Assembly (NCBI GenBank): GCA_016184225.1
Contig: JACPDA010000004.1
Span: 409,671 to 473,670, forward strand
DNA from: Candidatus Daviesbacteria bacterium
Lineage (GTDB): Bacteria; Patescibacteriota; Microgenomatia; Daviesbacterales; UBA10151
Length of the DNA: 64,000 bases
Direction of reading: 5' to 3'
Below are positions 1 to 50,931 of this stretch, piece by piece; positions within the stretch are counted from its first letter, which is position 1; every line of letters begins with the position of its first letter. The notes under the pieces are model-generated. The model worked only from the letters and a program-made list of their open reading frames with translations, did no database searches and was not told the DNA's origin. The position numbers and the translations under genes were made by a program.

Positions 1-935
1 GTATTACTGATGATCCGGGACTTATTCCCCGGATTAATGAAAACAGAGGTAACTCAAGACTGCCTGAACCTTTCCCAAGATTAATACATAATAAGGTGAC
101 TTATGTAACATTTTATTTCAGCAGGAATTACTTTTCTCATTTTACTCCTCAATTTTTATTCTTCTCGGGTGTTCCTCATAAACAACACCATGTCCAGAAT
201 ATGGGTGAGCTTTATCTTTTTCAGGCTCCTTTTCTTTTCTTAGGTCTTTATGCCCTTTTTCGTTTAAGAAGTAGGTTTAAGGGTTTGTTATTTGCCTGGG
301 TTTTGTTAGCCTTTATTCCGGTATCGGTCACAAATGATAGTATTCCTCACGGTTTGAGGACACTGATTGCAGCACCGTTTTATCAGTTAGTTTCCGCGTT
401 AGGCCTTGTATTTAGCTTAAAATGGTTTGGGAAATTGCCGATAGCTTCTAAAGTTTTCTTGGGTGGGATACTGACTTTAGCTGTTACTATGAGCATAGGT
501 TATTATTTATATAATTATTATCAAAAATATCCGATTGCTTACTCCAGAGATTGGCAATATGGTTATAAGCAAGTGGTAGATTATATTGGTAAACACCAGG
601 ATGAATACGATGAAATTATTTTTACCAGGCATTACGGCGAACCGCACATGTTTACGCTGTTTTATTTAAATTATGACCCGACAAAGTATCAAAATTCGCC
701 AAACCTAAATAGATTTGAAACACATGATTGGGTTTGGGTTTTAAGATTTGATAAATACTATTTCCCTGATTTAGGTGATGAGGGAACTCAGTTTGCCGAT
801 ATTGTTAAGGAAAATCCCGGTAAGAAATTATTATTTATCGGCAGAAAAGGGGATTTTCCCAAGGACATCCCTAGGCTCTTTTCAACTAATTTCCTAAATG
901 GTGAGAATGCTTTTGATATTGCGGAGGTTAAATAA
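1..935 (+). CDS. GT-C membrane glycosyltransferase of the PMT_2/GT39-like type (ArnT/PMT-like). The 5' end is truncated by the window edge.
   Basis: The frame stays open from nt 3 up to the listed ORF (96..935) with no stop codon. The C-terminal half (NYFSHF...GVPHKQ...IPHGLR...DWQYGYKQVVDYI...YGEPHMFTLFYLNYDP) aligns colinearly with the C-terminal halves of the two downstream paralogs. Confidence 0.65.
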   Translation, partial: ITDDPGLIPRINENRGNSRLPEPFPRLIHNKVTYVTFYFSRNYFSHFTPQFLFFSGVPHKQHHVQNMGELYLFQAPFLFLGLYALFRLRSRFKGLLFAWVLLAFIPVSVTNDSIPHGLRTLIAAPFYQLVSALGLVFSLKWFGKLPIASKVFLGGILTLAVTMSIGYYLYNYYQKYPIAYSRDWQYGYKQVVDYIGKHQDEYDEIIFTRHYGEPHMFTLFYLNYDPTKYQNSPNLNRFETHDWVWVLRFDKYYFPDLGDEGTQFADIVKENPGKKLLFIGRKGDFPKDIPRLFSTNFLNGENAFDIAEVK

Positions 936-941
936 TATCCG

Positions 942-2369
942 ATGATGTCAATGTCAAAATTGTTGCGGCCAAAAATTTTATTGGCTTTAATTTGTGCGCT
1001 ATTACTTTTCACGCGTTTTTACAAAATTACAGAAATCCCGCCTTCCGTTTATTGGGATGAAGCTTCTATTGGATATAATGCCTATTCTATAGCCCAAAAT
1101 GGTAAAGATGAATGGGGAGAAACTTTCCCGATTCATTTCCGGGCTTTTGGAGAATTTAAGCTGCCGGTTTACATCTATGCTACTGTTTTAAGTGTAAAGA
1201 TTTTCGGTCTCAATGAATTATCTGTCAGGCTGCCGGCTGTTCTATTTTCCTTAGGGGCGGTAGTTATAATTTATTTTCTGACAAAGAGATTGTCAGGAAG
1301 TGAAAGAACGGGAATATTGGCTAGCTTCATTTTTTCTGTTTCTCCATGGTATTTTATCTTTTCAAGAACAGGTTATGAGGCAACGGCAGGTTTGATGTTC
1401 TATCTATTGGCAATATATCTATTTCTCTTCAACAATAGAAATTCCCTGTATATCTTCTTTTCCGTATTAAGTTTTATTTTAAGTGCTTATAGTTACAATA
1501 GTTTCAGGATAGTTGCCCCTTTGACAATTATAATTTTGATTTTCTATGAATTGAAAAATCTTAAATATCTTCTAAGTAAAGCTATTCCACCAATTATATT
1601 ATCTCTGGTTATTCTGATTTTTAGTTTGGTTCCGATCTATAGATTGTATGTTTATGATGTAGGGGCTTCCCGTCTGCAAGTTGTAGGGACGACAAGTTCA
1701 AGCTTCATTAAAAATTATTTTTCTCATTTTAGCCTGGATTTTCTTCTATTGAATGGGGATAAAAACCCAAGAAGCCAGCAACCAGGCTTTGGACAGCTCT
1801 TTTTACCCGAAGCAGCACTCCTATTATTTGGACTTTTGTATTTAATAAGCGGTAAATCAAAATACAAGTGGTTACTTTTTGCATTGTTATTACTCGGACC
1901 GATCCCTGCCGCAATCACTAAAGAATCTCCTCATGCGCTACGTTCTATCGCTATGGTTCCATTCATATCGATTATCTCTGCAGTAGGAGTAGTCGCTTTT
2001 TCTAAAAGGATTAAAAAAGAAAATTATATCTTCTTGATGGTTTGTTTAGTTTTTCTTGCCTTCTTTATTAACTACTTTTGGAGTTTCTTAAATGTATACC
2101 CGACCAAATCTGCAGAAGAGTGGCAATCCGAATACAAAAAGATCTACACGGATAATGGCAATAGGTTTAACGGATACCAACGAATTCTAATTTCGGATCA
2201 GTATGCACAGCCCTATATCTTTACTCTTTTTTATCTGAAATATAATCCTGAAAGCTTTAGGCGGGAAGTTGTTAGAAATAGCATTGATCAGTGGGGGTTC
2301 TCTACAGTTAAAAAATTTGGTAAATTTGAGTTTGGTAAGTACCCGGAACTAATTACCTTTGAAAGATGA
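942..2369 (+). CDS. GT-C glycosyltransferase, PMT_2/GT39-like (ArnT/protein O-mannosyltransferase-like).
   Basis: Polytopic membrane protein. The first-loop motif YWDEASIGYNAYSIAQNG-DEWG-FP---AFGEFKLPVYIY is the DE-loop signature of the ArnT/PMT family. The C-terminal domain is shared with the neighbouring paralogs. Confidence 0.75.
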   Translation: MMSMSKLLRPKILLALICALLLFTRFYKITEIPPSVYWDEASIGYNAYSIAQNGKDEWGETFPIHFRAFGEFKLPVYIYATVLSVKIFGLNELSVRLPAVLFSLGAVVIIYFLTKRLSGSERTGILASFIFSVSPWYFIFSRTGYEATAGLMFYLLAIYLFLFNNRNSLYIFFSVLSFILSAYSYNSFRIVAPLTIIILIFYELKNLKYLLSKAIPPIILSLVILIFSLVPIYRLYVYDVGASRLQVVGTTSSSFIKNYFSHFSLDFLLLNGDKNPRSQQPGFGQLFLPEAALLLFGLLYLISGKSKYKWLLFALLLLGPIPAAITKESPHALRSIAMVPFISIISAVGVVAFSKRIKKENYIFLMVCLVFLAFFINYFWSFLNVYPTKSAEEWQSEYKKIYTDNGNRFNGYQRILISDQYAQPYIFTLFYLKYNPESFRREVVRNSIDQWGFSTVKKFGKFEFGKYPELITFER

Positions 2370-3958
2370 ACAAAGTAAAAATACTGTTGATCGCGATTAT
2401 GGTTTTATCCGGAATATTAAGACTATACAAGATTGATAGTGTTCCGCCTTCGCTGTCCTGGGATGAAGTGGCAGTAGGTTACAATGCCTGGACTATTGCC
2501 AGTTTTGGTAAAGACGAGTACGGAAAAACTTTCCCTGCTTTTTTTAAGTCATTCGGTGACGATAAGCACCCTGTTCATATTTATGCAACCGCCCTATCGG
2601 TAAAATTCTTAGATCTTTCAGAATTTAGTACCAGGTTGCCTTCAGCTGTTTTTGGGGTACTGAATGTGATATTAATATTTTTTCTGGTTAGGTTGATGTT
2701 TGCATCTTCAAATTTAGGTCTTATTGCCTCTTTTTTCTTAAGCGTTTCTCCGTATAATATCCATTTTTCCCGGTTTAACCACGAAGCTAATTTTGCACTA
2801 TTTTTTTTCCTGCTGGGACTTACTTTGTTCTACGGAGCAATTAACAGGAACCTGAAATTATTACCTTTGTCTGCTTTAAGTTTGGGAATTGCTTTTATTT
2901 CCTATCATCCCTCTAAAATAGTCGTTCCTTCGGTGGTAATTCTGCTTGTTTTTTTATATGGCAAGCAGTTACTGAAAGATAGGATCGGTTTTTTTGGGGT
3001 TTTGATAGTTGCCATAATTTTTTCTTTTTTAACTGTGTTCAATCTTCAACTATTAGGGATAGCTCGTGTTAACCAAACTTCATTAAATATGGATGAAGTT
3101 AGGAAAACAAGACTTTTTCAATTGACTAATAATGAGATTCTTGGCCGTTTAAACCTTACACTAACCCAATATAGTTGGCATTTCATGCCTGATTATTTAT
3201 TCATTTCCGGAGATAAAAATCCGCGTTTGTCCGATCAAGTCACAGGGCAGTTTTATATACTTGATGCACTTTTTTTGCTGGCGGGTGTTATCTTTTTATT
3301 ATATAAAAGATCTAAATCAGGGATTGTACTCCTAGTTTGGGCGCTTGTTGCACCGCTTCCTTCGGCTTTAGTATCAGAAGCCCCGCATGCGGCAAGAGCA
3401 ATGTTTACAATGGGAAGCTGGCATATGATTTCTGCTTTAGGCTTTTTCTCGCTTTTAAACATAGCATCAAAGCCGTTTCTTAAAAAGGGGATTTTAATAA
3501 CTACAATAATAATTATGCTGTTTTTACTATCCCGTTATTTAACTCACTATTATGGAGAATATGCCAAAAGAAATGCCATTGATTGGCAATACGGGATGAA
3601 GCAGATAGTTGAGTATGTTAAAGATAATACCCAATATTCCCAGGTTTTTATCACTGATGTCAGGTCCCAGCCCTACATATTTTTCCTGTATTATTTAAAA
3701 ATACCTTTGCCTGAATACTTAAGCTCCGTTGTCTATAACCGTTCGGAAGCTACTAAAAGCTTTAATTCCGTGTCTTATTTTGACAGGTATTATTTTGGCG
3801 GTTGGGATCCGATTGGAAGCTCGCCTGAAAAAGGATTTTTATATGTTTTAACTCCCAGCCAATATGATGGTCTGAGGTATAAGTTGGTTTTTCAAGTCAA
3901 AAAAGTTATATACTATCCCAACGGCACACTAGCTTACTATTTAGTGAGTGCAGATTAA
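2366..3958 (+). CDS. GT-C glycosyltransferase, PMT_2/GT39-like. This is the third tandem paralog.
   Basis: SWDEVAVGYNAW...FGDDKHPVHIYAT loop motif. ATGA overlap with the upstream gene. About 12 predicted TM helices. C-terminal DWQYGMKQIVEYV...SQPYIFFLYYLK domain. Confidence 0.75.
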   Translation: MNKVKILLIAIMVLSGILRLYKIDSVPPSLSWDEVAVGYNAWTIASFGKDEYGKTFPAFFKSFGDDKHPVHIYATALSVKFLDLSEFSTRLPSAVFGVLNVILIFFLVRLMFASSNLGLIASFFLSVSPYNIHFSRFNHEANFALFFFLLGLTLFYGAINRNLKLLPLSALSLGIAFISYHPSKIVVPSVVILLVFLYGKQLLKDRIGFFGVLIVAIIFSFLTVFNLQLLGIARVNQTSLNMDEVRKTRLFQLTNNEILGRLNLTLTQYSWHFMPDYLFISGDKNPRLSDQVTGQFYILDALFLLAGVIFLLYKRSKSGIVLLVWALVAPLPSALVSEAPHAARAMFTMGSWHMISALGFFSLLNIASKPFLKKGILITTIIIMLFLLSRYLTHYYGEYAKRNAIDWQYGMKQIVEYVKDNTQYSQVFITDVRSQPYIFFLYYLKIPLPEYLSSVVYNRSEATKSFNSVSYFDRYYFGGWDPIGSSPEKGFLYVLTPSQYDGLRYKLVFQVKKVIYYPNGTLAYYLVSAD

Positions 3959-4721
3959 AAACGTGAATAAAATTTCCGTAGTATTAGCCACATATAACGA
4001 AGAGGACACTTTAGAAAATTGTCTGGAATCAGTAGAGAAGCTGGCAGGTGAGATTGTAATAGTTGACGGTGGATCAACGGACAAAACTTTAGACATTGCC
4101 AGAAAGTTTAAAGCTAAAATTATTCAGACAGATAATCCGCCGATTTTTCATATAAATAAAAACAAGGCAATAGATGCCGCCACGAAGGAATGGATTTTAC
4201 AACTGGATGCTGATGAGGTGGTAACGAAAGATCTTGTAAAGGAAATAAAAAATGTAATTTCATTAGCATCGGATATTAATGGATATTGGATTCCCAGGAA
4301 GAATTTTTTCTTAGGTAAATTCTTAACAAAAGGCGGTCAGTATCCTGATTATACTTTAAGGTTATACCGACGAGGCAAAGGGAGACTGCCTGCAGAAGAT
4401 GTCCATGAGCAGGCAGTAGTGGAAGGTAAGATTAGTTTCTTAAAGTGCGACCTCTTACACTTACGAGATAAGAATTTCTCTAAGTATCTGGAAAGATTTA
4501 ACAGGTATACTGACTTACTGGCTTTACAAATAAAGGTCAGTAGCAACAGGAAGAATATTTTTTCTTCTCTGAATTTCATTTTCATTAAACCAACTATTTG
4601 GTTTTTAAAAGCTTACTTTCGACATAGAGGATATGTTGACGGTTTTCCGGGTTTCATCTTTGCGCTGTTTTCCTCGCTCAGATTTCCCATCTCGTACATA
4701 AAATTTATGATTAACGAATAA
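3948..4721 (+). CDS. GT2 glycosyltransferase (DPM1/GtrB-like polyprenol-phosphate sugar synthase type).
   Basis: ISVVLATYNEE...IVIVDGGSTDKT...LQLDADEV motifs (GT2 DxD). C-terminal hydrophobic tail. The listed start is a GTG at 3948. An alternative GTG at 3963 would avoid overlapping the upstream stop. Confidence 0.75.
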   Translation: MQIKNVNKISVVLATYNEEDTLENCLESVEKLAGEIVIVDGGSTDKTLDIARKFKAKIIQTDNPPIFHINKNKAIDAATKEWILQLDADEVVTKDLVKEIKNVISLASDINGYWIPRKNFFLGKFLTKGGQYPDYTLRLYRRGKGRLPAEDVHEQAVVEGKISFLKCDLLHLRDKNFSKYLERFNRYTDLLALQIKVSSNRKNIFSSLNFIFIKPTIWFLKAYFRHRGYVDGFPGFIFALFSSLRFPISYIKFMINE

Positions 4722-4724
4722 AAT

Positions 4725-5801
4725 ATGAAAGTTGCAATTAATACCCTGCCATTGAAAAGTGCACATAAGTATAGAGGGATAGGATATTACACTGTTAACC
4801 TGCTTGAATCTTTAAAACAGGAGACTTCTATGGACGTCTCTGAGTTTACCAAGCTGACTGATGTAAAAGATGTCGATATAATTCATTATCCTTGGTTTGA
4901 TCTATTTTTTCATACCTTACCAATAAGAAGGTATTTTCCAACAATTGTTACCATCCATGATCTAATCCCTCTCGTTTTTCCTAATCATTACCCGGTAGGA
5001 TTGAAAGGTAAGTTGAACTTCATACTTCAAAAAATAGCATTAAGTAGTTGTAAATATATTATCACCGATTCCAACACATCCAAACAAGATATAGTCAAAT
5101 TTCTAAAAATCAAAAACGAAAGGATTTCAGTAATATCTTTAGCGGCAGATCCGAAATTTAGGGTTTTAAACAATGATACAAAATTACTTCATATTAAAAG
5201 GCAATATCATCTGCCTGAACGTTTTTTGCTTTATGTTGGGGATGCCAACCGGGTTAAGAATCTCCCTTTCCTGATAGAAGGATACAGAGAGCTTTTGAAG
5301 ATTCCGGGTTATTTGGATCTTAAGTTGGTTTTAGTAGGCGGAGTATTTTTAAAACATGTAGAAAATATAGATCATCCGGAGCTTGAAAGCTTAAAGTTAG
5401 TTAATAAATTAATTAAACAATATGGTCTGGATGAAAACATAATTAGACCAGGACAGATTGAAGATGGTGAATTAGTAGCTTTTTATAATTTGGCAACCCT
5501 GTATGTTCAGCCCTCCATCTATGAGGGTTTTGGACTGCCAATTCTGCAGGCATTTGCCTCCGGAACACCGGTTATAGCATCTAATAAAGGGAGCTTGCCG
5601 GAAATTGGGGGACAAGCGGCTGTGTATTTTGATCCAGTTGACATTAGGCAATTTACAATTATAGCCAAAGAATTATTAGAGGATCCTTCATTGTTAAACA
5701 AGTTATCAAAGCTCGGTTTAAAGCGCTCTACTCAATTTTCCTGGAAGAGGGTGGCACGGGAAACAGAGTCAATTTACCTTAAAGCACTTAAGAATGAATA
5801 G
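4725..5801 (+). CDS. GT4 (GT-B fold) glycosyltransferase.
   Basis: C-terminal EGFGLPILQAFASGTPVIASNKGSLPEIGG, the EX7E-type motif of GT1/GT4 enzymes. Confidence 0.75.
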   Translation: MKVAINTLPLKSAHKYRGIGYYTVNLLESLKQETSMDVSEFTKLTDVKDVDIIHYPWFDLFFHTLPIRRYFPTIVTIHDLIPLVFPNHYPVGLKGKLNFILQKIALSSCKYIITDSNTSKQDIVKFLKIKNERISVISLAADPKFRVLNNDTKLLHIKRQYHLPERFLLYVGDANRVKNLPFLIEGYRELLKIPGYLDLKLVLVGGVFLKHVENIDHPELESLKLVNKLIKQYGLDENIIRPGQIEDGELVAFYNLATLYVQPSIYEGFGLPILQAFASGTPVIASNKGSLPEIGGQAAVYFDPVDIRQFTIIAKELLEDPSLLNKLSKLGLKRSTQFSWKRVARETESIYLKALKNE

Positions 5802-6957
5802 TCACATAAATCTTAATTCACCCGTTTTTAAAATCTTGTTGATTTTTCTTACATGGAGATTTTTACTGATACTAATTTTGCTTTTTGCGATCAATTTTGT
5901 TCCTTTGGGGAGTACAGATCGTTTTTTGGGTGGAGGTCCAGTTAACTATTCCATTTCACCGGAGCTTTTTGCTTGGGCAAACTTTGATGGGGAACATTAT
6001 TTATCGATTGCTATATTCGGATATAAAAATCTAGAGCAGGCTTTTTTCCCGGTTTATCCTGCTTTGATAGCATTTTTCGCTAGACCTGATTCTTATAATT
6101 TACTAACTTCTTTGGTTAATTCTACAATTTTAGGTCTTCTTATTTCGAATGTATCTTTCGTACTAGCCTTGATCTTTCTTTGGGAATTGATAAAAATTGA
6201 TTTTTCAAACAAAATTGCATATTGGGTAATAATACTGCTACTTATCTTTCCGACGTCTTTTTATTTTGGATCGGTCTATAACGAATCAGTGTTTCTGCTT
6301 TTGTCCGTGTTGTCATTCTATAATGCCAGAAAAGGCAAGTGGTTTGCAGCAGGATTGCTGGGAGCGGTTGCATCTGCAACCAGGGTTTTCGGCATTTTTC
6401 TTTTACCGGCACTGCTGATAGAAGCCTGGCAACAGAAGGCACCTTATTCCAGATTAATGTGGATTTTCCTAATTCCTTTTGGGCTGGGAGCTTATATGTG
6501 GTATCTGAATACGACCGTAGGCGATGCTCTTGCTTTCTATCACTTTCAGGGATTAGTCGGCGAGCAGCACCAGCCAGGTATAACATTATTGCCACAAGTA
6601 TACTTTCGTTATATAAAAATGTTTGCAACAACCAGTATGCAGAATCCGATCTTTCAAACATTAATACTGGAGTTTACCATAGGTTTACTTTTTTTCTTCC
6701 TTCCGATTTACGGATACTTTAAGAAAATTAGATTATCATATGTCCTATACGCCATGGTGGGATTCCTGGTGCCGGCGATACAGGGTAGCTTTTCATCGTC
6801 CCCGCGTTATGTGATAATTTTATTTCCTGCGTTTTTAGCCGCCGCTTTATTAGTTAATAGTTTGCCAAAAATAGTTAAAACTCTGATAATACTTTTGTCT
6901 TTTTCTGTTTTTCTGATAGAAGCAGCTCTATTTTTAAGGGGGTACTGGGTAGCATGA
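5794..6957 (+). CDS. Polytopic membrane protein, possibly a DUF2029/PIG-V-like GT-C mannosyltransferase.
   Basis: About 10 hydrophobic helices. ANFDGEHYLSIAIFGYKN...FFPVYPALIAF resembles the first-loop region of GT87/PIG-V-like membrane glycosyltransferases. The assignment is tentative. Confidence 0.4.
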   Translation: MNSHINLNSPVFKILLIFLTWRFLLILILLFAINFVPLGSTDRFLGGGPVNYSISPELFAWANFDGEHYLSIAIFGYKNLEQAFFPVYPALIAFFARPDSYNLLTSLVNSTILGLLISNVSFVLALIFLWELIKIDFSNKIAYWVIILLLIFPTSFYFGSVYNESVFLLLSVLSFYNARKGKWFAAGLLGAVASATRVFGIFLLPALLIEAWQQKAPYSRLMWIFLIPFGLGAYMWYLNTTVGDALAFYHFQGLVGEQHQPGITLLPQVYFRYIKMFATTSMQNPIFQTLILEFTIGLLFFFLPIYGYFKKIRLSYVLYAMVGFLVPAIQGSFSSSPRYVIILFPAFLAAALLVNSLPKIVKTLIILLSFSVFLIEAALFLRGYWVA

Positions 6958-8267
6958 AAAAAAGAGTATACGAATTAATCAAACACCCATTGTTTTCAGG
7001 CAGCATGGTTATGATAATCGGTTCCAATGTCATTAGTTTTTTAAATTATTTATACCATCTCATAATGGTTAGATTATTAGCTCCACCCAGCTATGGAGAA
7101 TTGGTAGCACTGTTTTCTCTAATTGGGTTTTTGGGGATATTGTCCTCTTCTTTAAATTTGGTAGTAACTAAATTTGTTTCAGCGGCAAAAAATAACTTGG
7201 AAATAAGTAGTATTGTAAGCTGGCTTAATTCTAAAATCTTCATCTTTTCTTTAGCAGTTTTTCTATTAATTACTTTTTTATCCCCCATTATTTCTTCTTT
7301 TTTAAAAATAGAAAATAATTTATTAATTATTTTAATTGCCTTGCCTTCTCTTTTAGGATTGGCATCTCTGCTTTACAAATCGGTTCTTCAGGGGCTCTTA
7401 AGGTTTCAGCAGATGATTTTAAGTGTCTTTGTCGAAAACGGATTAAAGCTGATATTAGGGGTTATCCTGGTATATGCAGGATTTTCAGTAGGCGGGGCTG
7501 TAGCGGGTTTAGTGATTGCCTCATTTATAGGCTTTTTTCTGTCAAGATTTTTTATCCGCAATTTCCTGAAAGCATCAGAGGAAAAACCTAACATTAAATC
7601 AATGTTTTTGTACTCTTTTCCTGTAACAGTTCAATACCTATCGATAACGTCTCTTTTCTCTTCCGATATACTTCTAATTAAACATTTTTTCTCTCCTCAT
7701 GATGCCGGCATCTACGCAATAATTTCAACACTGGGAAAGATTATTCTTTTCGGAACAGGGCCTATTGGAGCGGTAATGTTCCCGCTTGTATCCCAGAGAC
7801 AGGCAAGGGGTGATAATTATAAGCGCATTTTTTTCTTGAGCTTCATTTTGACTTTTACCTTGGCCGTTTTGATTCTTCTAATTTATTGGTTCATTCCGGA
7901 GCAGGTGATTAATCTTCTTAATCCTTCATATCTGGAAGCGGCACCTCTTTTAGTTTGGTACGGAATCTTTATAACATTTTTTACCCTTAGTTCGCTCTTT
8001 ATAAGTTATTATCTTTCTTTAAATAGAGTATCTGTTGTTATTTTACCGTTTATTGCGGCGGTAGCGCAAATTATCGGGATATGGTTTTTTCATCGTAGTT
8101 TATTCGAAGTAATTCTGGTTTCTTCTATAGTGGCTGGCATGCTGCTTGTACTTTTGTTAATATATTCAGCATATGGAAGCAAACTTGGTGTCGGTGATAG
8201 TGCCGGCATACAAACAAGAAAAAACAATAGCCAGAGATTTAAGGAGGATGAAGGAAGTTTTAGATAA
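6954..8267 (+). CDS. Wzx-like oligosaccharide flippase (MOP/polysaccharide biosynthesis protein family).
   Basis: 12-14 TM helices. The N-terminal region (SGSMVMIIGSNVISFLNYLYHLIMVRLLAPPSYGELVALFSLIGFL) is typical of Wzx/RfbX flippases. Confidence 0.65.
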   Translation: MKKRVYELIKHPLFSGSMVMIIGSNVISFLNYLYHLIMVRLLAPPSYGELVALFSLIGFLGILSSSLNLVVTKFVSAAKNNLEISSIVSWLNSKIFIFSLAVFLLITFLSPIISSFLKIENNLLIILIALPSLLGLASLLYKSVLQGLLRFQQMILSVFVENGLKLILGVILVYAGFSVGGAVAGLVIASFIGFFLSRFFIRNFLKASEEKPNIKSMFLYSFPVTVQYLSITSLFSSDILLIKHFFSPHDAGIYAIISTLGKIILFGTGPIGAVMFPLVSQRQARGDNYKRIFFLSFILTFTLAVLILLIYWFIPEQVINLLNPSYLEAAPLLVWYGIFITFFTLSSLFISYYLSLNRVSVVILPFIAAVAQIIGIWFFHRSLFEVILVSSIVAGMLLVLLLIYSAYGSKLGVGDSAGIQTRKNNSQRFKEDEGSFR

Positions 8268-8979
8268 ACTTCGTTATCCTACAGAGTTAATTTGTGTAGT
8301 TGACGGTAATGTTGATGCTACCTTCAGAAAAGCTTCCGTGTTTGCTAATAAGAACCCAAATGTAAGAGTAATTGGATATGATCATAATAAAGGTAAAGGA
8401 TATGCCATCAGATTCGGTATGGCAGCAAGTAAGGGAGATATTGTCGGGTTTATTGACGCGGGTATGGATTTGAATCCAAACGGACTATTTATGCTGCTGG
8501 AGCACTTTGAATGGTATAACGCAGATATAATAGTAGGATCTAAAAGGCATCCCGTATCTAAGGTGCATTATCCTTGGCAAAGGAAAGTGCTTTCCATGGG
8601 TTACCAGCTTTTGGTTTTGACCCTCTTTGGTTTAAAAGTACGTGATACCCAAGTCGGTATGAAATTTTTCAAAAGGGAGGTTTTAGAAAAGGTATTACCC
8701 AGACTTTTGGTAAAGGCTTTTGCTTTTGATGTAGAAATATTAGCTGTAGCAAATTACCTGAAATATAATAGAATTTATGAAGCGCCTGTAGAGATTAAGT
8801 TAAGATTTGGCGGGACATCAACAGTGACAAGCCAGAAATTTATCAGGACAGTTTTAGCAATGCTTACAGATACATTAGCAATATTCTATAGATTAAAAAT
8901 ATTAAATTATTATTCCGATAAAAATCACAGAAGATGGAAATTTGATCCGGAACTAAATTTTAGGGTAAACGTCGGATGA
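8173..8979 (+). CDS. GT2 glycosyltransferase, DPM1/GtrB-like.
   Basis: VSVIVPAYKQE...ICVVDGNVD...FIDAGMD plus C-terminal FAFDVEILAVA (GtrB/DPM1-like). The ORF overlaps the 3' end of the flippase gene by 95 nt. Confidence 0.7.
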   Translation: MEANLVSVIVPAYKQEKTIARDLRRMKEVLDKLRYPTELICVVDGNVDATFRKASVFANKNPNVRVIGYDHNKGKGYAIRFGMAASKGDIVGFIDAGMDLNPNGLFMLLEHFEWYNADIIVGSKRHPVSKVHYPWQRKVLSMGYQLLVLTLFGLKVRDTQVGMKFFKREVLEKVLPRLLVKAFAFDVEILAVANYLKYNRIYEAPVEIKLRFGGTSTVTSQKFIRTVLAMLTDTLAIFYRLKILNYYSDKNHRRWKFDPELNFRVNVG

Positions 8980-10103
8980 ATATATTAATTTTTTCCTGGA
9001 GAGGGCCCGGTCATCCAAATGCCGGGGGGGCAGAAATTTCTACCCATGAACATGCAAAAGGATGGGTTAAAGCAGGCCATCAGGTTACCTTATTTACCTC
9101 TTATTACCATGGGGCAAAAAGGGAAGAAAAAATAGACGGAGTAACCATCATAAGGGAAGGACGTCAATTTATAGAAGTTCAACTAAAAGCTTTTAAGTGG
9201 TTTTTATTTGCAAAGCACCCTGAATTTGATCTGGTTGTTGATGAATTCCATGGAATTCCCTTTTTTACGCCGCTCTATGTAAGAGATAAGAAACTTGCCT
9301 TTATTCACGAGGTAACCGGGGAGGTATGGGGATTAAATCCCTGGAGCCGCCCTTTTAACCTGATACCTAAAGTATTAGGTCCTATCTTTGAACCGCTAAT
9401 TTTTAAACTGTTTTATAAAAAGATTCCGTTTATGACGGTTTCAGAATCTACCAAAAAAGACCTGATTAATTTCGGGATACCTGGAAAATGCATCACCGTT
9501 ATCAATAACGGATTCGATAAGTATAATACAGAAAATAATTTGTCTAAAGAAAAGAAAAAAACAGTTATTTTTCTGGGAGCCTTAGCAAAAGATAAGGGTA
9601 TAGAAGAAGCCTTAAAAACTTTTTCTATTTTAAGCCGATCAGGAGGTAACTTTCAGTTTTGGATAGTTGGTAAATCTGATCCGAAATATTTACAATTTTT
9701 GAAAAGACAAAGTCATAGATTAAACATAAATACAAAAGTAAGGTTTTGGGGGTTTGTCTCGCAAAAGGAAAAGTTCAGACTCCTCAAAAGATCCCATGTT
9801 CTAATTCATCCTGCTATTCGGGAGGGGTGGGGGCTGGTAGTGATAGAAGCGGCAAGTGTAGGAACCCCGACTGTGGCATTTAATGTACCCGGTCTTCGCG
9901 ATTCCGTCATTCATGATAAAACCGGAATCATTTGTAAAGATCAATCCCCGGAGTCATTAGCGAAAGCGATAATTAACCTTTTGCAAGGCAGTGTAAAATA
10001 TAAGGAGATGAGTCGAAGTGCGATTTCCTGGAGCAAAAACTTCTCTTGGGAAAAAGCTACGAAATCAAGTTTGAAATTAATTGAAGAAGTGGTAAACTAC
10101 TGA
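8976..10103 (+). CDS. GT4 (GT-B) glycosyltransferase.
   Basis: N-terminal GGAEIST..WVKAGHQVTLFT and C-terminal REGWGLVVIEAASVGTPTVAFNVPGLRD (EX7E). ATGA overlap with the upstream gene. Confidence 0.75.
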   Translation: MNILIFSWRGPGHPNAGGAEISTHEHAKGWVKAGHQVTLFTSYYHGAKREEKIDGVTIIREGRQFIEVQLKAFKWFLFAKHPEFDLVVDEFHGIPFFTPLYVRDKKLAFIHEVTGEVWGLNPWSRPFNLIPKVLGPIFEPLIFKLFYKKIPFMTVSESTKKDLINFGIPGKCITVINNGFDKYNTENNLSKEKKKTVIFLGALAKDKGIEEALKTFSILSRSGGNFQFWIVGKSDPKYLQFLKRQSHRLNINTKVRFWGFVSQKEKFRLLKRSHVLIHPAIREGWGLVVIEAASVGTPTVAFNVPGLRDSVIHDKTGIICKDQSPESLAKAIINLLQGSVKYKEMSRSAISWSKNFSWEKATKSSLKLIEEVVNY

Positions 10104-10105
10104 TA

Positions 10106-11083
10106 ATGAAAAAAACGAAAAAGGTTGTCATTACCGGAGCGGGCGGGTTTGTTGGTCACCATTTGGTTTCTTTTTTGAAAAAGAAGGGTTACTGGGTGCG
10201 CGGAGTTGACATAAAACATCCTGAATATAAATCTACCGATGCAGATGAATTTTTGAAATTGGATTTAAGGGAGAAAAAAAATGCTTTAAAAGCAACAGAG
10301 GGAATGGATCATGTTTACGCCTTGGCAGCTGATATGGGCGGAATGGGTTTTATTTCCAAAAATCATGCAACTATTCTTTATAATAATGCAACTATTAACC
10401 TCAACACCATTGAGGCGGCAAGAATCAATAAAGTCGGTAGGTATTTTTATTCATCTTCAGCATGTATTTATCCGGAATACCGCCAGATCAAATCAAAACT
10501 GAAACCTTTGAAGGAAGAAGATGCTTTTCCGGCACAACCACAAGATGCTTACGGTTGGGAAAAATTAGTAACTGAAATTCTGGCCAAATACTATCATGAG
10601 GAGCATGGTTTAGAGACACGTATTGCCCGTTTCCATAATATCTTTGGCCCATATGGAACATGGGATGGAGGTAGGGAAAAAGCGCCTGCAGCGATCTGCA
10701 GAAAAGTTGCCATAGCAAAGCTAACAGGCAAAAAGGAGATAGAAATTTGGGGAGACGGAAAGCAAACAAGATCTTTTTGTTATATTGATGATTGTTTAAA
10801 CGGCATCTATAAATTGATGATGTCTGACTTTAGAGAGCCACTTAATATCGGTCAGGATAGAATGGTAACAATAGATCAATTAGTAGATATAGTCTCAAAG
10901 ACTGCAGGTGTAAACTTTAAGAAAAAGCATATTCCCGGACCTCAAGGGGTCAGGGGGAGAAATTCAGATAACACAAAGCTTCGCGAGACCCTGAAATGGG
11001 AACCTGAAATTTCTTTGGAAGAGGGGCTTGCAAGAACCTATCAGTGGATAGAAGAGCAGGTAAAAACTAAAAACAAAAATTAA
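10106..11083 (+). CDS. GDP-mannose 3,5-epimerase (GME)-like NAD-dependent epimerase.
   Basis: Extended SDR with the GAGGFVGHH Rossmann motif. Long colinear similarity to plant GME: SSSACIYPE, AQPQDAYGWEKLVTE, RIARFHNIFGPYGTWDGGREKAPAA, GDGKQTRSFCYIDDC, SDFREPLNIG and HIPGPQGVRGRNSDN all match GME signature blocks as I recall them. Confidence 0.75.
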   Translation: MKKTKKVVITGAGGFVGHHLVSFLKKKGYWVRGVDIKHPEYKSTDADEFLKLDLREKKNALKATEGMDHVYALAADMGGMGFISKNHATILYNNATINLNTIEAARINKVGRYFYSSSACIYPEYRQIKSKLKPLKEEDAFPAQPQDAYGWEKLVTEILAKYYHEEHGLETRIARFHNIFGPYGTWDGGREKAPAAICRKVAIAKLTGKKEIEIWGDGKQTRSFCYIDDCLNGIYKLMMSDFREPLNIGQDRMVTIDQLVDIVSKTAGVNFKKKHIPGPQGVRGRNSDNTKLRETLKWEPEISLEEGLARTYQWIEEQVKTKNKN

Positions 11084-13404
11084 TGCTTCTGTTTTTATTT
11101 TATCTTATTCCTATTTTACTCTCAGGAATAATTCTCCTTCGAAAGATCAGTACGATAAATAGATTTGAATTATTAATTCCGGCAGGAAGTATTTTGGGTT
11201 TTGCAATATTTACCTTTTCTTTAAACCTTGTCTCGTTTTTACTAAAAGGACCGATTGGGATCATAACTGCTTACCTTTTAGTAATTAGCCTAGGATTTAC
11301 GGCATTTAAGTCTGTCAGATCAGAAACTTGGCATGTTGATTTCCCCAGAGGCAAACAGTTAACCTTTTGGCTCCTCAGTATTTTAGTTTGGGGGCTTTTT
11401 ATATATTGGAAGTCAGCCTATGCGCTTATAGGAAGCGATACCAATCTTTATTACGGCATTGCCCATTCTTTTATAAAAGGGAATTTTCCCTTTCTAACAC
11501 CCTGGCAGCCGGATATTCCGTTAGCATACCATGCTGGAGCGCCGGAACTGCTGGGCGCATTTTATTATTTTTCTAATTTAGATTTTCAGTTTTTGCATTT
11601 ATTCTTTTCGGGTCTTTTTATTTTCTTTGCTGCGCAGATAATTATTTGGATCATTCAAAGGCATGAGACGGTAGCTAGTTTCTTATTGGCCAACCTTGCG
11701 GCTACAGTAACTTTCGTTAGCTTTGGTTTTATTTATATAACTTGGCCTGTTTTTCCAATACAATTATCTGAGTTAGGAAGCGTTAATCAGTTAGTTTTAT
11801 GGCTGAGGAATCTTCCGACTGTAGCTTCCGCAATTGAAGTATATGGTGCGCCTATTAATCTGGATGCTTTAATTTATTTTATCTTCCATGCTTATGGGCT
11901 GGTAATCTTTTTGTCTTTGTTGGTATTACTGTTGTACAACAGAAAAGATAAACCCTTAATGGGATGGGTTTTGATTTGTACTGGTTTAGCTTCCTTAGCA
12001 TTGGTTAATGAATCTATGTTTATGGCAGCTTTTCCTGCTTTAGTTGGGGGAATATTTTTAACCGAACTGAGAGAAAAAAGGGTGTTAAAAAGTTTAAGAG
12101 TTTTAACCCTGCTTTTAGTATTGACTATTCTTGTGGTCTTTTTCCAGGGAGGCATTATCTCTGCTTCGCTAAGCAATCCCCGAGGCATACAAAGATCTAC
12201 CGTAATATTCCCCAAAAAGGAAGATGTTAAAGAAGATTTTAGAAGCTATCATTTAGGTCAGATATCATCCAAGTTATTGCCTGATAAACTAGAGTGGTTG
12301 CCCTTAAGATGGTTTCATCCGGGAGCTTATTTTTTACTGGTATTTTCTGTGGTGGCAATTATTATAGCCAGAAGTAAGCCTTATTCAGTCTTGCTAAAAG
12401 CTTTATTTATAGCAGGTATTTTTTCCTTAATAGCATATAATGCTATAGTCCCCAAATTTTTAGTTGCCAACGGAAACAGGTTTTTATCTACCTCGTTTTT
12501 ATTTTTTTCTTTGATTTTGTGTATATCATTAATTCCGCTTTTTGAAAAAATTAAAAGTTTAGTTAAGAAGATACTATTTTTCTTGCTTTTAGGGTGGGTT
12601 TTTATCCCCACGATTTTGCCGCCTCTGGCACTTCTTACAAAACAAAGGTTTGGCGAGAATAAATTAATTCCTAAATACCAACAAAGTAGTGACGGGATAT
12701 CATGGCTTAAAAGGAATGTAAATTTAAGTGAAAGGGTACTAGTGTTGGATAAAAACTCTCCCCATCCCAGCGGCCAAGAGAGGGCTTTAGTAGAAGCAGG
12801 AGCATTTGCGCCCCTATTTTCCGGAAATTTCAGAGCTTTTACAATTGAAGCTTCTCCCGAATATGTTGATATTGCTTATAGCTTAAGTCCAAATAGTCTG
12901 AAAAAACTGAAAGTAAATATCCTGCTGGTGGATAATATCTTTTTTGAATCCTTGCCCGAAAGGAGAAAGCAGCAACTGCAAGATGAAACATATTTCGAAA
13001 AGGTTTTCGATAATTCAAAACCTAGCAATTGGGAAAAAATTTACAGAATTAAAGATAAATATCTAGAAAGTGGCGGTGAGTTGGATGGCACCCTTGAGCA
13101 ATTATTACGAGTTTTACCCACTCGAGGAAAAATATATATTGATAATGAGAAAAATTTCAACCCTTCCTTTTTAAGGAGGCCGCTTATTTTCAGTTTAAGA
13201 GATAGAGATATCTATTACTTACCTCAGTCAGGCGTTTATCTGAATGTCGAGGCGAATATAAATTCTCACCCTCCAAGAAAGGAAAGAGATTATGATTATT
13301 TAATTTTAGGGAAAAATACAAATCCGGAAGAAGAATGCAACTGCCAAACTAAACTTTTATGGCAGGGAATTAGGAATGAGATTTATGTTTGGAGAAAGAT
13401 TTAA
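11083..13404 (+). CDS. Large polytopic membrane protein (773 aa) with a C-terminal soluble domain. Function unknown, possibly a glycan-processing membrane enzyme.
   Basis: About 14 hydrophobic segments in the first 520 aa followed by a hydrophilic C-terminal domain of about 250 aa. No recognisable catalytic motif. Confidence 0.45.
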   Translation: MLLFLFYLIPILLSGIILLRKISTINRFELLIPAGSILGFAIFTFSLNLVSFLLKGPIGIITAYLLVISLGFTAFKSVRSETWHVDFPRGKQLTFWLLSILVWGLFIYWKSAYALIGSDTNLYYGIAHSFIKGNFPFLTPWQPDIPLAYHAGAPELLGAFYYFSNLDFQFLHLFFSGLFIFFAAQIIIWIIQRHETVASFLLANLAATVTFVSFGFIYITWPVFPIQLSELGSVNQLVLWLRNLPTVASAIEVYGAPINLDALIYFIFHAYGLVIFLSLLVLLLYNRKDKPLMGWVLICTGLASLALVNESMFMAAFPALVGGIFLTELREKRVLKSLRVLTLLLVLTILVVFFQGGIISASLSNPRGIQRSTVIFPKKEDVKEDFRSYHLGQISSKLLPDKLEWLPLRWFHPGAYFLLVFSVVAIIIARSKPYSVLLKALFIAGIFSLIAYNAIVPKFLVANGNRFLSTSFLFFSLILCISLIPLFEKIKSLVKKILFFLLLGWVFIPTILPPLALLTKQRFGENKLIPKYQQSSDGISWLKRNVNLSERVLVLDKNSPHPSGQERALVEAGAFAPLFSGNFRAFTIEASPEYVDIAYSLSPNSLKKLKVNILLVDNIFFESLPERRKQQLQDETYFEKVFDNSKPSNWEKIYRIKDKYLESGGELDGTLEQLLRVLPTRGKIYIDNEKNFNPSFLRRPLIFSLRDRDIYYLPQSGVYLNVEANINSHPPRKERDYDYLILGKNTNPEEECNCQTKLLWQGIRNEIYVWRKI

Positions 13405-14131
13405 GGCTTAAGGTATGGAATTTCGGTAAGTCACTAAAGTATACTTTTGTTACCGCCTTTAGAACATTAAACCCGTCCTGGAGGGCTCTTATACCCGATG
13501 CTCCACCCACTCTTTTTGTATAAGTAATAGGGATTTGTACAAGATTCATATCCATCTTGACAGCCTTTACAACAGTCTCGGCTTCATATTCAAAATGCCT
13601 TTCCCTTAAGTCCAAAGTCAAAAATGCCTCTTTCCTGAATCCCTTAAAGCCGGCCATTACATCAGTGATTTTTCTGCCGCAAGCAAGCGATGTGGCGAAA
13701 GACATTGCCCAGTTACCAAACAGGTTGCGAAAACTAACAGAACCTTTCTCTATTTTTCCTTCTCCTTGGAATCTGGTCCCGATTACCACATCCGCCCCTT
13801 TATCTAAGGCGTCAACAAAAAGAGGTATCTCATGCGGTTGAAATTGATGGTCAGTATCAATTTGAATGATATAATCACCTGTGGCTAGGAGTCCTCCCGC
13901 CCAAAAATCCGCTCCTTTACCCCGCTTGAAGGGAAACCGGATTATCTTGTCCACGCGCATTTTCTTGGCTATTTCTATAGTTTTATCTTTTGATGCGGCA
14001 TCAACAACGATAATCTCTATGGGAAAAAATTTCCTTAACTTCTGGCAATCCTTAATTGTTCTGCCAATATTTTTTTCCTCATTGTAAGAGGTAAGAATAA
14101 TACTGACTAACTTTTTGCTTTTCTTGTTCAT
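13370..14131 (-). CDS. GT2 glycosyltransferase, DPM1-like polyprenol-phosphate mannosyl/glucosyltransferase.
   Basis: LVSIILTSYNEEKNI...IIVVDAASKDKT...IQIDTDHQ...ITDVMAGFKGF motifs typical of Dpm1/PpmC-like GT2. Confidence 0.75.
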   Translation of the reverse strand: MNKKSKKLVSIILTSYNEEKNIGRTIKDCQKLRKFFPIEIIVVDAASKDKTIEIAKKMRVDKIIRFPFKRGKGADFWAGGLLATGDYIIQIDTDHQFQPHEIPLFVDALDKGADVVIGTRFQGEGKIEKGSVSFRNLFGNWAMSFATSLACGRKITDVMAGFKGFRKEAFLTLDLRERHFEYEAETVVKAVKMDMNLVQIPITYTKRVGGASGIRALQDGFNVLKAVTKVYFSDLPKFHTLSLKSFSKHKSHS

Positions 14132-19894: not shown

Positions 19895-19916
19895 CTGATA
19901 TATTATATTAGCTTCT

Positions 19917-25337: not shown

Positions 25338-25357
25338 GTTTAGATAATACTTGAGAT

Positions 25358-27145: not shown

Positions 27146-27154
27146 TTTTAATTT

Positions 27155-28983: not shown

Positions 28984-28991
28984 TCCATGAT

Positions 28992-50853: not shown

Positions 50854-50931
50854 ATTTAAACACTTCAATTCTAGTTGCAATCCTTAGTAGAAGTCAATGT
50901 CTGTGAAGTGATACAATTTGTTAACGAATTG

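Follow-up and report, generated by a model that had tools for sequence, protein, structure and literature searches.

At the start of a 64-kb window (the whole stretch analysed, 64,000 nucleotides) from Candidatus Daviesbacteria, a tiny-genome groundwater bacterium, PMT_2-type GT-C genes stand in a row within an operon of further glycosyltransferase genes and a flippase gene. The products of this operon probably form a transmembrane glycosylation line of several components, which would build an envelope glycan for the most part at the outside of the cytoplasmic membrane. We infer the acceptor, like the donors (sugar and lipid carrier) and the direction of flow, and favour a non-protein one, namely a lipid-anchored or wall-linked glycan. 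The array and its conserved order appear to have no earlier description.

The PMT_2-type array and its conservation

The first-pass annotation had described an array of three PMT_2-type genes, but the array is cut by the window edge. Contig L007, 100% identical to window positions 1–3395, reveals three further PMT_2 genes upstream, and the trio in the window closes a run of six paralogs (p1–p6; 497, 528, 544, 550, 475 and 530 aa on L007) and forms the conserved core (p4–p6). A GT2-GT2-GT4 gene set was also found just upstream of the window. The three reading frames, all on the forward strand, lie where they had been placed: the translated 3′ part of p4 (1..935; 310 codons, its start outside the window), p5 (942..2369, 475 aa) and p6 (2366..3958, 530 aa), the last with an ATGA overlap with p5. 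The full p4 gene (L007 8342–9994) encodes 550 aa, with its start some 718 nt before the window begins, and carries the WDE-motif sequence NWDEISIGYNAYSILKTGRDEWGKLFP. Pfam assigned p4 (PMT_2 3.8e-11, PMT 2.4e-8), p5 (PMT_2 1.2e-10, PMT 9.8e-6) and p6 (PMT_2 2e-17, together with PMT) to the same families. The trio are paralogs, as proposed, with 32–35% identity (BLASTP E 1e-23 to 1e-71; p5 against p4 and p6, 33–35%). All six copies are mutually 22–36% identical, whereas same-order orthologs in a related genome reach 70–87%, which indicates that the duplications are old and that each copy has been kept.

Both genes complete in the window (p5 and p6) contain the motif WDE..GYNA..GKDE.G.TFP. The claim that all three share the WDE motif holds for p5, p6 and the full p4 on L007, and was overstated for the window, since the latter contains only the C-terminal 310 residues of p4. 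Alignment confirmed the conserved catalytic acidic pair: D33/E34, located in the first outer loop of the PMT_2-type paralogs, shows no variation among orthologs. The first-loop W-D-E, D50, P57, K67, R90, E140 and R344 are invariant in all orthologs compared (54 for p4, 55 for p5 and 68 for p6). The p4 orthologs, from 54 genomes, show 52–86% identity (W-D-E, D50, K67, R90 and E140 invariant), and every checked catalytic or phosphate-site residue of p5 is invariant across its 55 orthologs.

The AlphaFold model exhibits a GT-C(A) fold with high confidence (pLDDT 91.6), and the C-terminal domain that had been noted corresponds to an alpha/beta domain after the last TM helix (residues ~404–530). 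The Pfam family names point to protein O-mannosyltransferases and count against a non-protein acceptor. A rival reading is protein O-glycosylation, in which the PMT_2 paralogs would transfer sugars from polyprenyl-phosphate carriers to Ser/Thr of secreted or surface proteins, with S-layer proteins, pilins and disordered Ser/Thr-rich tails as candidate targets. As in actinobacterial Ppm1/Pmt or streptococcal GtrB/PgtC2, the paralogs would then differ in substrate or extend the O-glycan. We consider this reading unlikely, though it deserves some weight. A specific assignment as protein O-mannosyltransferases was rejected because the model is equally close to STT3, ALG12, ArnT and Pmt4. Another reading is an oligosaccharyltransferase-like role, in which at least one paralog would hand over a pre-assembled oligosaccharide in one piece from a polyprenyl (pyro)phosphate to protein or wall after flipping by Wzx, comparable to AglB/PglB. 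This is improbable: the paralogs carry a motif other than WWDYG, OSTs have a far larger C-terminal domain, and the sequence profile fits the EL1/TM2 motifs of ArnT type, not OST motifs.

The ArnT resemblance extends further, as the profile retrieved ArnT (E 0.004) and no other GT-C enzyme from the PDB sequences below E 0.01, profile comparison aligned the DKHP motif with ArnT EKPP (a shared KxP motif), and an ArnC-like GT2 is present. Lipid remodelling, with each GT-C adding sugar to a lipid head group and altering surface charge or permeability without making a polymer, nevertheless seems very improbable. ArnT systems have one GT-C, whereas here six to eight conserved paralogs accompany soluble GT4 and GT2 enzymes, and the window codes for many nucleotide-sugar pathways, which are typical of complex glycans.

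Among 79 species-level genomes (Daviesbacteria, Woesebacteria and other Microgenomates), the order p4-p5-p6-GT2-GT4-PIGV was observed in approximately 47, which points to a core envelope structure, as judged from gene order, rather than a strain-variable antigen. The first GT2 gene directly follows p6 in 46 of the 79 loci, and the p6-GT2-GT4-PIGV block is kept in 48. The distal order Wzx, GT2, GT4 is found in 29/79 loci, with a DPM1-like GT2 directly after Wzx in 34 of the 39 that contain Wzx. Wzx is missing within 10 kb in the other 40 loci, which counts against the proposed assembly line.

The downstream operon and its proposed steps

The genes following the array lie on the same strand. The first (3948..4721) encodes a soluble GT2 of GT-A type whose Pfam match (2e-22) covers the N-terminal half only. 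It had been called DPM1-like, a label we do not retain: its best PDB matches are GmaR (2e-16) and SunS (5e-9), with no DPMS or GtrB match among PDB sequences. It is followed by a retaining GT4 of GT-B type (4725..5801; Glycos_transf_1 1e-26; best PDB matches MshA, BshA and sucrose synthase) and by a short polytopic, GT-C-like protein of 387 aa (5794..6957) with seven hydrophobic segments and a PIG-V match (Mannosyl_trans2, PF04188, 1.1e-7; 32 bits against a cut-off of 22.4; PMT_2 0.002). A Wzx-type (MOP/PST) flippase of 437 aa and about 11 hydrophobic segments (6954..8267; Polysacc_synt, PF01943, 5e-17; Polysacc_synt_3 1e-15) and a second GT4 (8976..10103; Glycos_transf_1 6e-40; NCBIfam Agl16 4e-25, below cut-off) flank the operon's other GT2 in the window. 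Pfam thus bore out both GT4 genes, the membrane GT-like gene and the Wzx-like gene. ATGA overlaps were found at three junctions (2366, 6954 and 8976); the remaining junctions are overlaps of 1–95 nt or gaps of 2–6 nt.

Of the operon's two GT2 enzymes in the window, only the second (8173..8979, 268 aa) is DPM1-like as annotated. This predicted polyprenyl-phosphate sugar synthase resembles DPMS, GtrB and ArnC across its entire catalytic domain (best PDB matches Pyrococcus DPMS 5mlz, 5e-14, residues 5–221; GtrB 5ekp, 1.6e-10; and ArnC), with NCBIfam matches to PpgS, ArnC and AglJ. Its gene overlaps wzx by 95 nt; the start at 8173 retains beta-strand 1 (VSVIVPAYKQE), which the gene callers' start at 8248 would remove. 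The enzyme has no C-terminal TM anchor, a GacJ/DPM2-like partner was not found and no GtrA-type flippase is present, all of which weigh against the assembly line.

The same operon continues, after a 2-nt gap, with an NAD-dependent sugar-nucleotide epimerase/dehydratase (10106..11083; Pfam Epimerase 3.5e-44). The last gene of the co-directional block encodes a 773-aa polytopic membrane protein (11083..13404) with about 13 hydrophobic segments and a large C-terminal domain. It has no Pfam or NCBIfam match, 92 homologs in Daviesbacteria that are all annotated as hypothetical, and no significant hhalign match to the PMT_2 family or to family B, described below.

In the proposed assembly line, the soluble GT2 and GT4 enzymes (3948–4721, 4725–5801, 8976–10103 and the upstream GT2-GT2-GT4 set) would initiate or prime a lipid-bound glycan at the cytoplasmic side of the membrane, although these enzymes are generic and could use soluble or protein acceptors, a point against this arrangement. 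The DPM1/GtrB-like GT2 would use a nucleotide sugar to charge polyprenyl phosphate with a monosaccharide, and the Wzx-type flippase would bring the sugar or glycan, in lipid-linked form, to the other side of the membrane. Proteins p1–p6 and the PIG-V-like protein, perhaps joined by the 773-aa protein, would each transfer the sugar of a polyprenyl-phosphate-sugar to the growing acceptor, each with its own linkage or position specificity.

Priming and further glycosyltransferases in the window

The window encodes four DPM1-class GT2 synthases, all adjoining genes for polytopic membrane proteins. The second (13370..14131, reverse strand; AglJ 1.7e-34, DPhHxTase 7e-22, PpgS 1e-12 in NCBIfam) is AglJ/Dol-P-hexose-transferase-like and convergent with the operon. 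The third (19145..20008, reverse strand; NCBIfam PpgS 2.6e-19, AglJ 1.4e-15) is PpgS-like and divergent from two tandem genes (19917..23623, forward; 19917–21737 and 21734–23623; 606 and 629 aa, 34% mutual identity) with no Pfam match at E<=1. These belong to family B, a second, unannotated GT-C family with six genes in the 64 kb. Its AF2 model (pLDDT 91) has a GT-C(A) fold, nearly all best Foldseek matches are GT-C(A) enzymes (PglB first, 2.7e-4), GDDW/PDDW is conserved after TM1, and hhalign relates it to the PMT_2 family with a probability of 80%. A reverse-strand operon (23598..28983) combines an AglJ-like GT2 (28300–28983), an RGP/GT75-like protein (27155–28303) and two family-B members (25358–27145 and 23598–25337). 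Further members lie at 29806..31695 (forward, 629 aa, 27–31% identity to the tandem pair) and 60587..62485 (forward, 632 aa, 26–30% to other members), and P0197 is a natural fusion of a DPM1-like GT2 with a family-B GT-C, a point in favour of the proposed assembly line.

As the first-pass annotation had stated, no priming phosphoglycosyltransferase (PGT) was found in the window. Pfam detected none on any ORF of at least 150 aa, phmmer with E. coli MraY and WcaJ found none in any six-frame segment even at E<=10, and signature motifs were seen in E. coli controls only. None was found just outside it either, whether in the organism's own 9 kb upstream of the window or less than 10 kb from any of the 79 homologous loci. 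Wzy/WaaL and LCP families are likewise absent from the window. The gene content fits the suggested lipid-linked monosaccharide pathway, in the form of polyprenyl-phosphate-monosaccharides and GT-Cs; the suggested exclusion of a classic Und-PP route does not follow, because priming enzymes are often encoded away from the locus, as with GacO and with WecA for O-antigens and arabinogalactan. The primer could quite plausibly be a PGT elsewhere in the genome. By analogy with haloarchaea, a DPM1/AglJ-like GT2 might instead start a polyprenyl-monophosphate-linked oligosaccharide, a tentative option. A GT4-made glycolipid, as in PIM/LM/LAM or GPI synthesis, is an equally tentative candidate; the LM/LAM route begins on a phospholipid and therefore dispenses with a PGT.

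Comparison with known systems

The GT39 PMTs (Pmt1/2/4 and actinobacterial Pmt, with Ppm1/DPM1) resemble this locus in their Pfam families (PMT/PMT_2), in having a DE motif and a GT-C(A) fold, and in the DPM1-like GT2 linked to them. However, the paralogs are as close to other GT-C(A) families as they are to PMTs, their multiplicity is far higher and, unlike in PMTs, Pfam detects no MIR domain in the locus proteins. Likeness to the eukaryotic ALG/GPI lumenal mannosyltransferases (ALG3/9/12, PIG-M/V/B), with DPM1 and cytosolic GT4 enzymes, lies in fold and pathway logic only.

In haloarchaeal Agl (AglJ/G/I/E, AglD-AglR-AglS, AglB), a PGT is unnecessary because glycan synthesis begins on dolichol monophosphate with the DPM1-like GT2 AglJ; Dol-P-Man is the source of a sugar added through the Wzx-like AglR and the GT-C AglS (PMC3871713). 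Among NCBIfam families, AglJ, Agl16 and Agl23 match best here, all far below family cut-offs, but the host is bacterial and an AglB/STT3-type OST with WWDYG was not identified. Mycobacterial PIM/LM/LAM and arabinogalactan assembly (PimA/PimB' GT4, Ppm1 GT2, PimE/Mpt/Emb/Aft GT-C; for PimE, PMC12041525) similarly proceeds from cytoplasmic GT4 steps to serial GT-Cs outside the membrane, which draw on polyprenyl-phosphate sugars made by a DPM1-like GT2; the window contains PpgS-like and weak GT87/PIG-U-like matches.

The three-component systems GtrA/B/C, CsbB-GtcA-YfhO, GacI/J/K/L and ArnC-ArnE/F-ArnT likewise combine a flippase with a GT2 that makes polyprenyl-phosphate-sugar and a GT-C with an acidic first-outer-loop motif. 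GacI/K/L shares with this locus a GT2 without a TM anchor and a Wzx-type flippase (PMC8035078); MOP-superfamily (Wzx-type/MATE) flippases for Und-P-sugars have also been described (PMC11127046). Each synthase in these systems works with a single GT-C, and what is attached is a single side-chain residue. In contrast, this locus, where neither a GacJ-like partner nor a GtrA-type flippase was found, unites six to eight PMT_2 paralogs, a PIG-V-like GT-C and soluble GT2/GT4 enzymes in one operon, in a block conserved class-wide (~47/79 genomes).

Extent and conservation of the GT-C array

The ORF map reproduced the gene positions of the first-pass annotation and depicts a plus-strand block that opens with PMT_2-type GT-C paralogs. 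The partial ORF ending at 935 (p4) is followed by p5 (942–2369, 475 aa) and p6 (2366–3958, 530 aa), both matching the Pfam PMT_2 and PMT models, and then by ORFs at 3948–4721, 4725–5801, 5794–6957, 6954–8267, 8173–8979 and 8976–10103. An epimerase (10106–11083) and a 773-aa membrane protein (11083–13404), also on the plus strand, continue the same block. ATGA overlaps, initially described as a general feature of these junctions, were observed at 2366, 6954 and 8976; elsewhere the genes overlap by 1–95 nt or are separated by gaps of 2–6 nt. Judged from its ORF junctions, the block fits one translationally coupled operon.

In the protein comparison of the window ORFs, p4 (partial), p5 and p6 were mutually 32–35% identical (E 1e-23 to 1e-71). 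The motif WDE..GYNA..GKDE.G.TFP is common to p5 and p6, the two complete ORFs. This DE loop had been assigned to all three window ORFs, which holds for p5 and p6; in p4 it lies outside the window, because the partial ORF comprises only the C-terminal 310 residues. Furthermore, the array, first described as three genes, contains six. A contig retrieved by exact-protein look-up (L007), 100% identical to window 1–3395, adds 9,059 nt upstream, including three whole PMT_2 genes and the rest of p4. Its gene order is a GT2 (cut by the contig end), a second GT2, a GT4, a 385-aa membrane protein, PMT_2 genes of 497, 528, 544 and 550 aa, the last being the window's partial ORF, and finally the 475-aa and 530-aa genes. 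Pfam assigned each of the four upstream genes to PMT_2. Within the genome, the six paralogs (p1–p6) are 22–36% identical, whereas same-order orthologs share 70–87% identity in the related MAG L002 and 40–71% in the relative L005, so the duplications are old.

A synteny survey, in which one genome per species was scanned, yielded 79 loci from Daviesbacteria, Woesebacteria, Levybacteria and other Microgenomates/Patescibacteria, whose ORFs were sorted by HMM and phmmer searches based on the families of the window. PMT_2-family genes were present in all 79 (2–8 per locus, mode 6). The order p4-p5-p6 was observed in 47 of the 79 loci and was followed by a GmaR-like GT2 in 46, and the order p6-GT2-GT4-PIGV was found in 48; all six paralogs appeared in order in 5. 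A Wzx gene was present in 39 loci, followed directly by a DPM1-like GT2 in 34, with 29 showing Wzx, GT2 and the second GT4 in order. A DPM1-class GT2 occurred in 65. These gene-order counts identify p4-p5-p6, the window's three, as the conserved core of the array; p1–p3 are lineage-variable additions.

The name Candidatus Daviesbacteria is attached to homologs of p6 and the 773-aa protein, and one 100% match, with locus tag HYU45_02480, lies on an NCBI contig of 769,731 bp. Many related MAGs (L012–L090, from 'binchicken' and SRP co-assemblies) bear the title 'uncultured Gammaproteobacteria bacterium' though their genes are Microgenomates-like; these titles look like placeholder mislabels. In a comparison with L002/L012 (CAZKCV010000002.1), a tract of ~2.9 kb at window ~7200–10100 was 100% nucleotide-identical, with flanks at 74–91%, and covered the 3' half of wzx, the DPM1-like GT2 and the second GT4. 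A chimeric window was ruled out because an independent single-run assembly is 100% identical over window 890–13958, spanning the tract. Its origin is either a recent recombination event involving two populations of Daviesbacteria or chimerism in the L002 co-assembly.

Catalytic residues, fold and family of the PMT_2 enzymes

Alignment of 177 orthologs (54 p4, 55 p5 and 68 p6) revealed that W32, D33, E34, D50, P57, K67, R90 and E140 (p6 numbering) are invariant. R344 is likewise invariant in every aligned sequence, and W407 differs in just one. The Asp/Glu pair, whose loss would have spoken against the initial reading, is present in all 177, and D-E is also retained in p1–p3. The acidic motif of the first extracytoplasmic loop that characterizes GT-C(A) enzymes is present in p4–p6 (W-D-E at 32–34 and D50), and the polytopic membrane core superposes on several solved GT-C(A) enzymes, in agreement with this fold.

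Structure comparison of the p6 model with solved GT-C(A) enzymes gave 22.7 for STT3B, 22.3 for ALG12, 22.2 for ArnT, 22.1 for Pmt4, 21.0 for Pmt2, 19.2 for AglB and 18.9 for PglB; greater closeness to PMTs than to other GT-C families was not found in this comparison. The Pfam PMT model (PF02366) matched p5, p6 and p4 at 25.7–34.3 bits against a cut-off of 22.7, more weakly than the broader PMT_2 model. Protein O-glycosylation (PMC12041528), in which the acceptor would be a protein, is a real rival to the best-supported reading given below. A specific placement with the protein O-mannosyltransferases is supported by nothing in these sequence and model comparisons.

A single-sequence PDB search with p6 returned nothing relevant. 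With a sequence profile, ArnT was the only GT-C enzyme found at E < 0.01, weakly (5ezm, E 0.004, 19 bits). The p6 segment DKHPVHIY aligned with ArnT EKPPFHMW, the E/D-K-x-P phosphate-binding motif before TM2, in a match too weak for ArnT/GT83 membership; an ArnT-like role, which this alignment would favor, is less likely. The structure comparison and the ArnT profile match indicate that p4–p6 are genuine GT-C(A) enzymes, members of the PMT_2/ArnT/PMT clan, with predicted catalysis. NCBI labels these genes GT39 already, and the component parts are of known kinds.

The WWDYG motif of STT3, AglB and PglB (GT66) is absent from the start of the C-terminal domain. A conserved (D/E)WQYG(M/Y)K follows the last TM helix at the corresponding place, where OSTs carry WWDYG. 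This sequence correspondence is a lead only, and the OST-like role that rests on it, with the canonical motif missing, has a low probability.

Partner enzymes, family B and the glycan island

Among the operon enzymes, the GT2 at 8173–8979 matched Pyrococcus DPMS (5mlz, 5e-14 over residues 5–221), GtrB (1.6e-10) and ArnC (2.8e-6) in the PDB, and is predicted to be a polyprenyl-phosphate-sugar synthase of the DPM1 class that lacks a TM anchor. It shows no C-terminal TM helices, its sole hydrophobic segment lying at residues 174–192, and a small membrane partner gene was not found. GacI and human DPM1 need partners, and by analogy this enzyme may behave like either. Its reading frame overlaps the end of wzx by 95 nt (8173–8267). 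Gene callers in three assemblies start it at 8248, a choice that would cost the GT-A fold its first beta-strand (VSVIVPAYKQE); a start at 8173 keeps this strand and is probably the true one. The GT2 at 3948–4721 had also been described as DPM1-like; its best PDB matches are GmaR (2e-16) and SunS, with no DPMS, GtrB or ArnC match at E ≤ 1e-3.

The protein at 5794–6957 scored above the Pfam PIG-V threshold, and the Wzx/MOP (PST) flippase at 6954–8267 matched PF01943 (62.6 bits) and PF13440 (58.1 bits), with ~11 hydrophobic segments against 10–14 expected TM helices. For the two GT4 enzymes (4725–5801 and 8976–10103), a PimA-like or glycolipid-synthase specificity was considered and set aside, as comparison with solved structures gave only generic MshA, GlgA and BshA matches.

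Three more polytopic membrane proteins have no Pfam match: those of 773 aa, 511 aa (41711–43246, −) and 918 aa (50875–53631, +). The 773-aa family comprises 92 homologs, only in Daviesbacteria-like genomes, with an invariant G117-x-D119 and many invariant Trp and Pro residues. No significant relation was detected by hhalign between the PMT_2 profile and the 773-aa, 511-aa, 918-aa and PIG-V-like proteins as single sequences, or between a 27-sequence profile of the 773-aa family and either the PMT_2 family or family B. A PDB profile search with the 773-aa family found nothing.

All 64 kb of the window form a glycan island, with DPM1-class GT2s, many nucleotide-sugar genes and a second set of membrane proteins, here called family B. 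The four DPM1-class GT2 genes (8173–8979, +; 13370–14131, −; 19145–20008, −; 28300–28983, −; the last three assigned by family matches) each adjoin polytopic membrane proteins. Family B consists of six paralogs at 19917–21737, 21734–23623, 29806–31695 and 60587–62485 on the plus strand and 23598–25337 and 25358–27145 on the minus strand. They are ~600 aa long with 11–13 TM segments, share 20–36% identity, are annotated as 'hypothetical' in Daviesbacteria and have no Pfam or NCBIfam model. An AF2 model (pLDDT 91) displays a GT-C(A) fold, with almost all of the best Foldseek matches being GT-C(A) enzymes; GDDW/PDDW is conserved after TM1, and hhalign gave a probability of 80% for a relation of family B to the PMT_2 family. 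When 1.84 billion representatives were searched with a profile, only 270 clusters were retrieved at E ≤ 1e-30. On its modeled fold, family B is put forward as a new GT-C family. The homolog P0197 (870 aa) is a natural fusion with a DPM1-like GT2, which ties this synthase class to GT-C partners.

Various sugar-modifying genes were observed around these enzymes. A minus-strand operon (23598–29675) contains a methyltransferase, an AglJ-like GT2, two family B genes and an RGP protein (reversibly glycosylated polypeptide/UDP-arabinopyranose mutase family; full-length Pfam match, 2e-20), of a family unusual in bacteria. This operon could represent a polyprenyl-phosphate-pentofuranose (or similar) branch. 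Wbp-like genes at 36011–39636, 43260–44408 (−) and 39911–41620, accompanied by a carbamoyltransferase, form a set with a GFO/IDH/MocA oxidoreductase, a hexapeptide acetyltransferase, a DegT aminotransferase, an epimerase/dehydratase, a UDP-GlcNAc 2-epimerase-family protein and UDP-sugar dehydrogenases (14217 and 54633), which suggests sugars of the 2,3-diacetamido-uronic-acid type. Two paralogous sugar C-methyltransferases (17027–18274, +; 47753–49033, −; 35% identical, Methyltransf_13/14 domains) would imply branched or C-methylated sugars in the product. Additionally, a 442-aa protein (56847–58175, +) with two N-terminal TM segments and a weak Sulfatase-family match (2e-6) may act on the envelope as an LtaS/EptA-like phospho-transferase. 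Also among the glycan genes are a 493-aa soluble protein without a family match (34467–35948, −) and a DUF5667 protein of 166 aa that has a single TM segment at its N-terminus (16523–17023, +).

Priming and the proposed assembly line

No window ORF of at least 150 aa matched PF00953 or PF02397. E. coli MraY and WcaJ, used as phosphoglycosyltransferase (PGT) queries and doubling as positive controls, found nothing by phmmer at E ≤ 10 in six-frame segments of at least 60 aa from the window, L007 and the 79 loci, and in the same set PGT signature motifs were matched in the E. coli controls only. The first-pass claim that the 64 kb contains no PGT is thus borne out by Pfam, phmmer and motifs, and the 9,059 nt upstream in L007 contain none in the operon just outside the window. 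The absence of a PGT from the locus and its relatives is solid. Priming enzymes are frequently encoded away from their locus, so this result, from a search of the locus and its relatives, fits PGT-dependent as well as PGT-independent routes. Possible explanations are a PGT elsewhere, a glycolipid primer, or a polyprenyl-monophosphate-linked oligosaccharide by analogy with haloarchaeal Agl pathways, where such an oligosaccharide is described (PMC3871713). Of the further components of a classical Wzx/Wzy Und-PP-linked polysaccharide locus, no Wzy polymerase or WaaL ligase (PF04932) exceeded the cut-off in window ORFs, the sole trace of Wzy being a sub-threshold Wzy_C match within p6 (E 0.0098, 16 bits against a cut-off of 31.7), and Pfam showed no LCP ligase family in any window ORF.

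The best-supported reading of the operon is a multi-component transmembrane glycosylation line. The DPM1-like GT2 would make a polyprenyl-phosphate sugar, soluble GT2/GT4 enzymes would prime or start an acceptor inside the cell, Wzx would flip lipid-linked material across the membrane, and outside it each GT-C paralog would add one sugar. Described systems provide precedents both for Und-P-sugar flippases of the Wzx or MATE type and for GT-A enzymes that lack TM segments (GacI/J/K/L, PMC8035078; PMC11127046). The many conserved GT-C enzymes recall mycobacterial LM/LAM and arabinogalactan assembly (PMC12041525) and the ALG/GPI pathways of the ER.

The glycan synthesis region covers at least 73 kb of a ~770 kb contig and encodes at least 14 enzymes of GT-C fold, together with four polyprenyl-phosphate-sugar synthases; its core gene order is shared by Daviesbacteria, Woesebacteria and related groups. 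These features suggest that the surface glycan of this lineage is conserved and elaborate. CPR/Patescibacteria, with genomes of ~1 Mb, probably live attached to other cells, and their surface chemistry is, to our knowledge, barely characterized. Envelope integrity, attachment to a host or recognition by phages could depend on this glycan in a major uncultured lineage, and the genes offered for testing are those of the invariant trio, the flippase and the DPM1-like GT2. Family B is a candidate for CAZy and Pfam. In the literature on GT-C, PMT_2, GT39 and ArnT in CPR/Patescibacteria/Microgenomates, we found no account of such arrays, the conserved trio or family B.

A broader reading, which we consider rather unlikely, is that Microgenomates (Daviesbacteria, Woesebacteria and relatives) build, by a PGT-independent route, an envelope lipoglycan or glycoconjugate that is conserved throughout the class; the interest of the locus rises if this is true. 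In such a route, priming would fall to a DPM1/AglJ-like GT2 acting on polyprenyl monophosphate or to a GT4 acting on a scavenged membrane lipid, and a Wzx-type protein would flip the intermediate. The fixed trio p4-p5-p6, possibly a complex, would extend the glycan outside the cell, helped by lineage-variable GT-C enzymes, family B among them. The logic of a PGT-independent route would be nearer to archaeal Agl, eukaryotic ALG/GPI and mycobacterial LM/LAM than to bacterial Wzx/Wzy.
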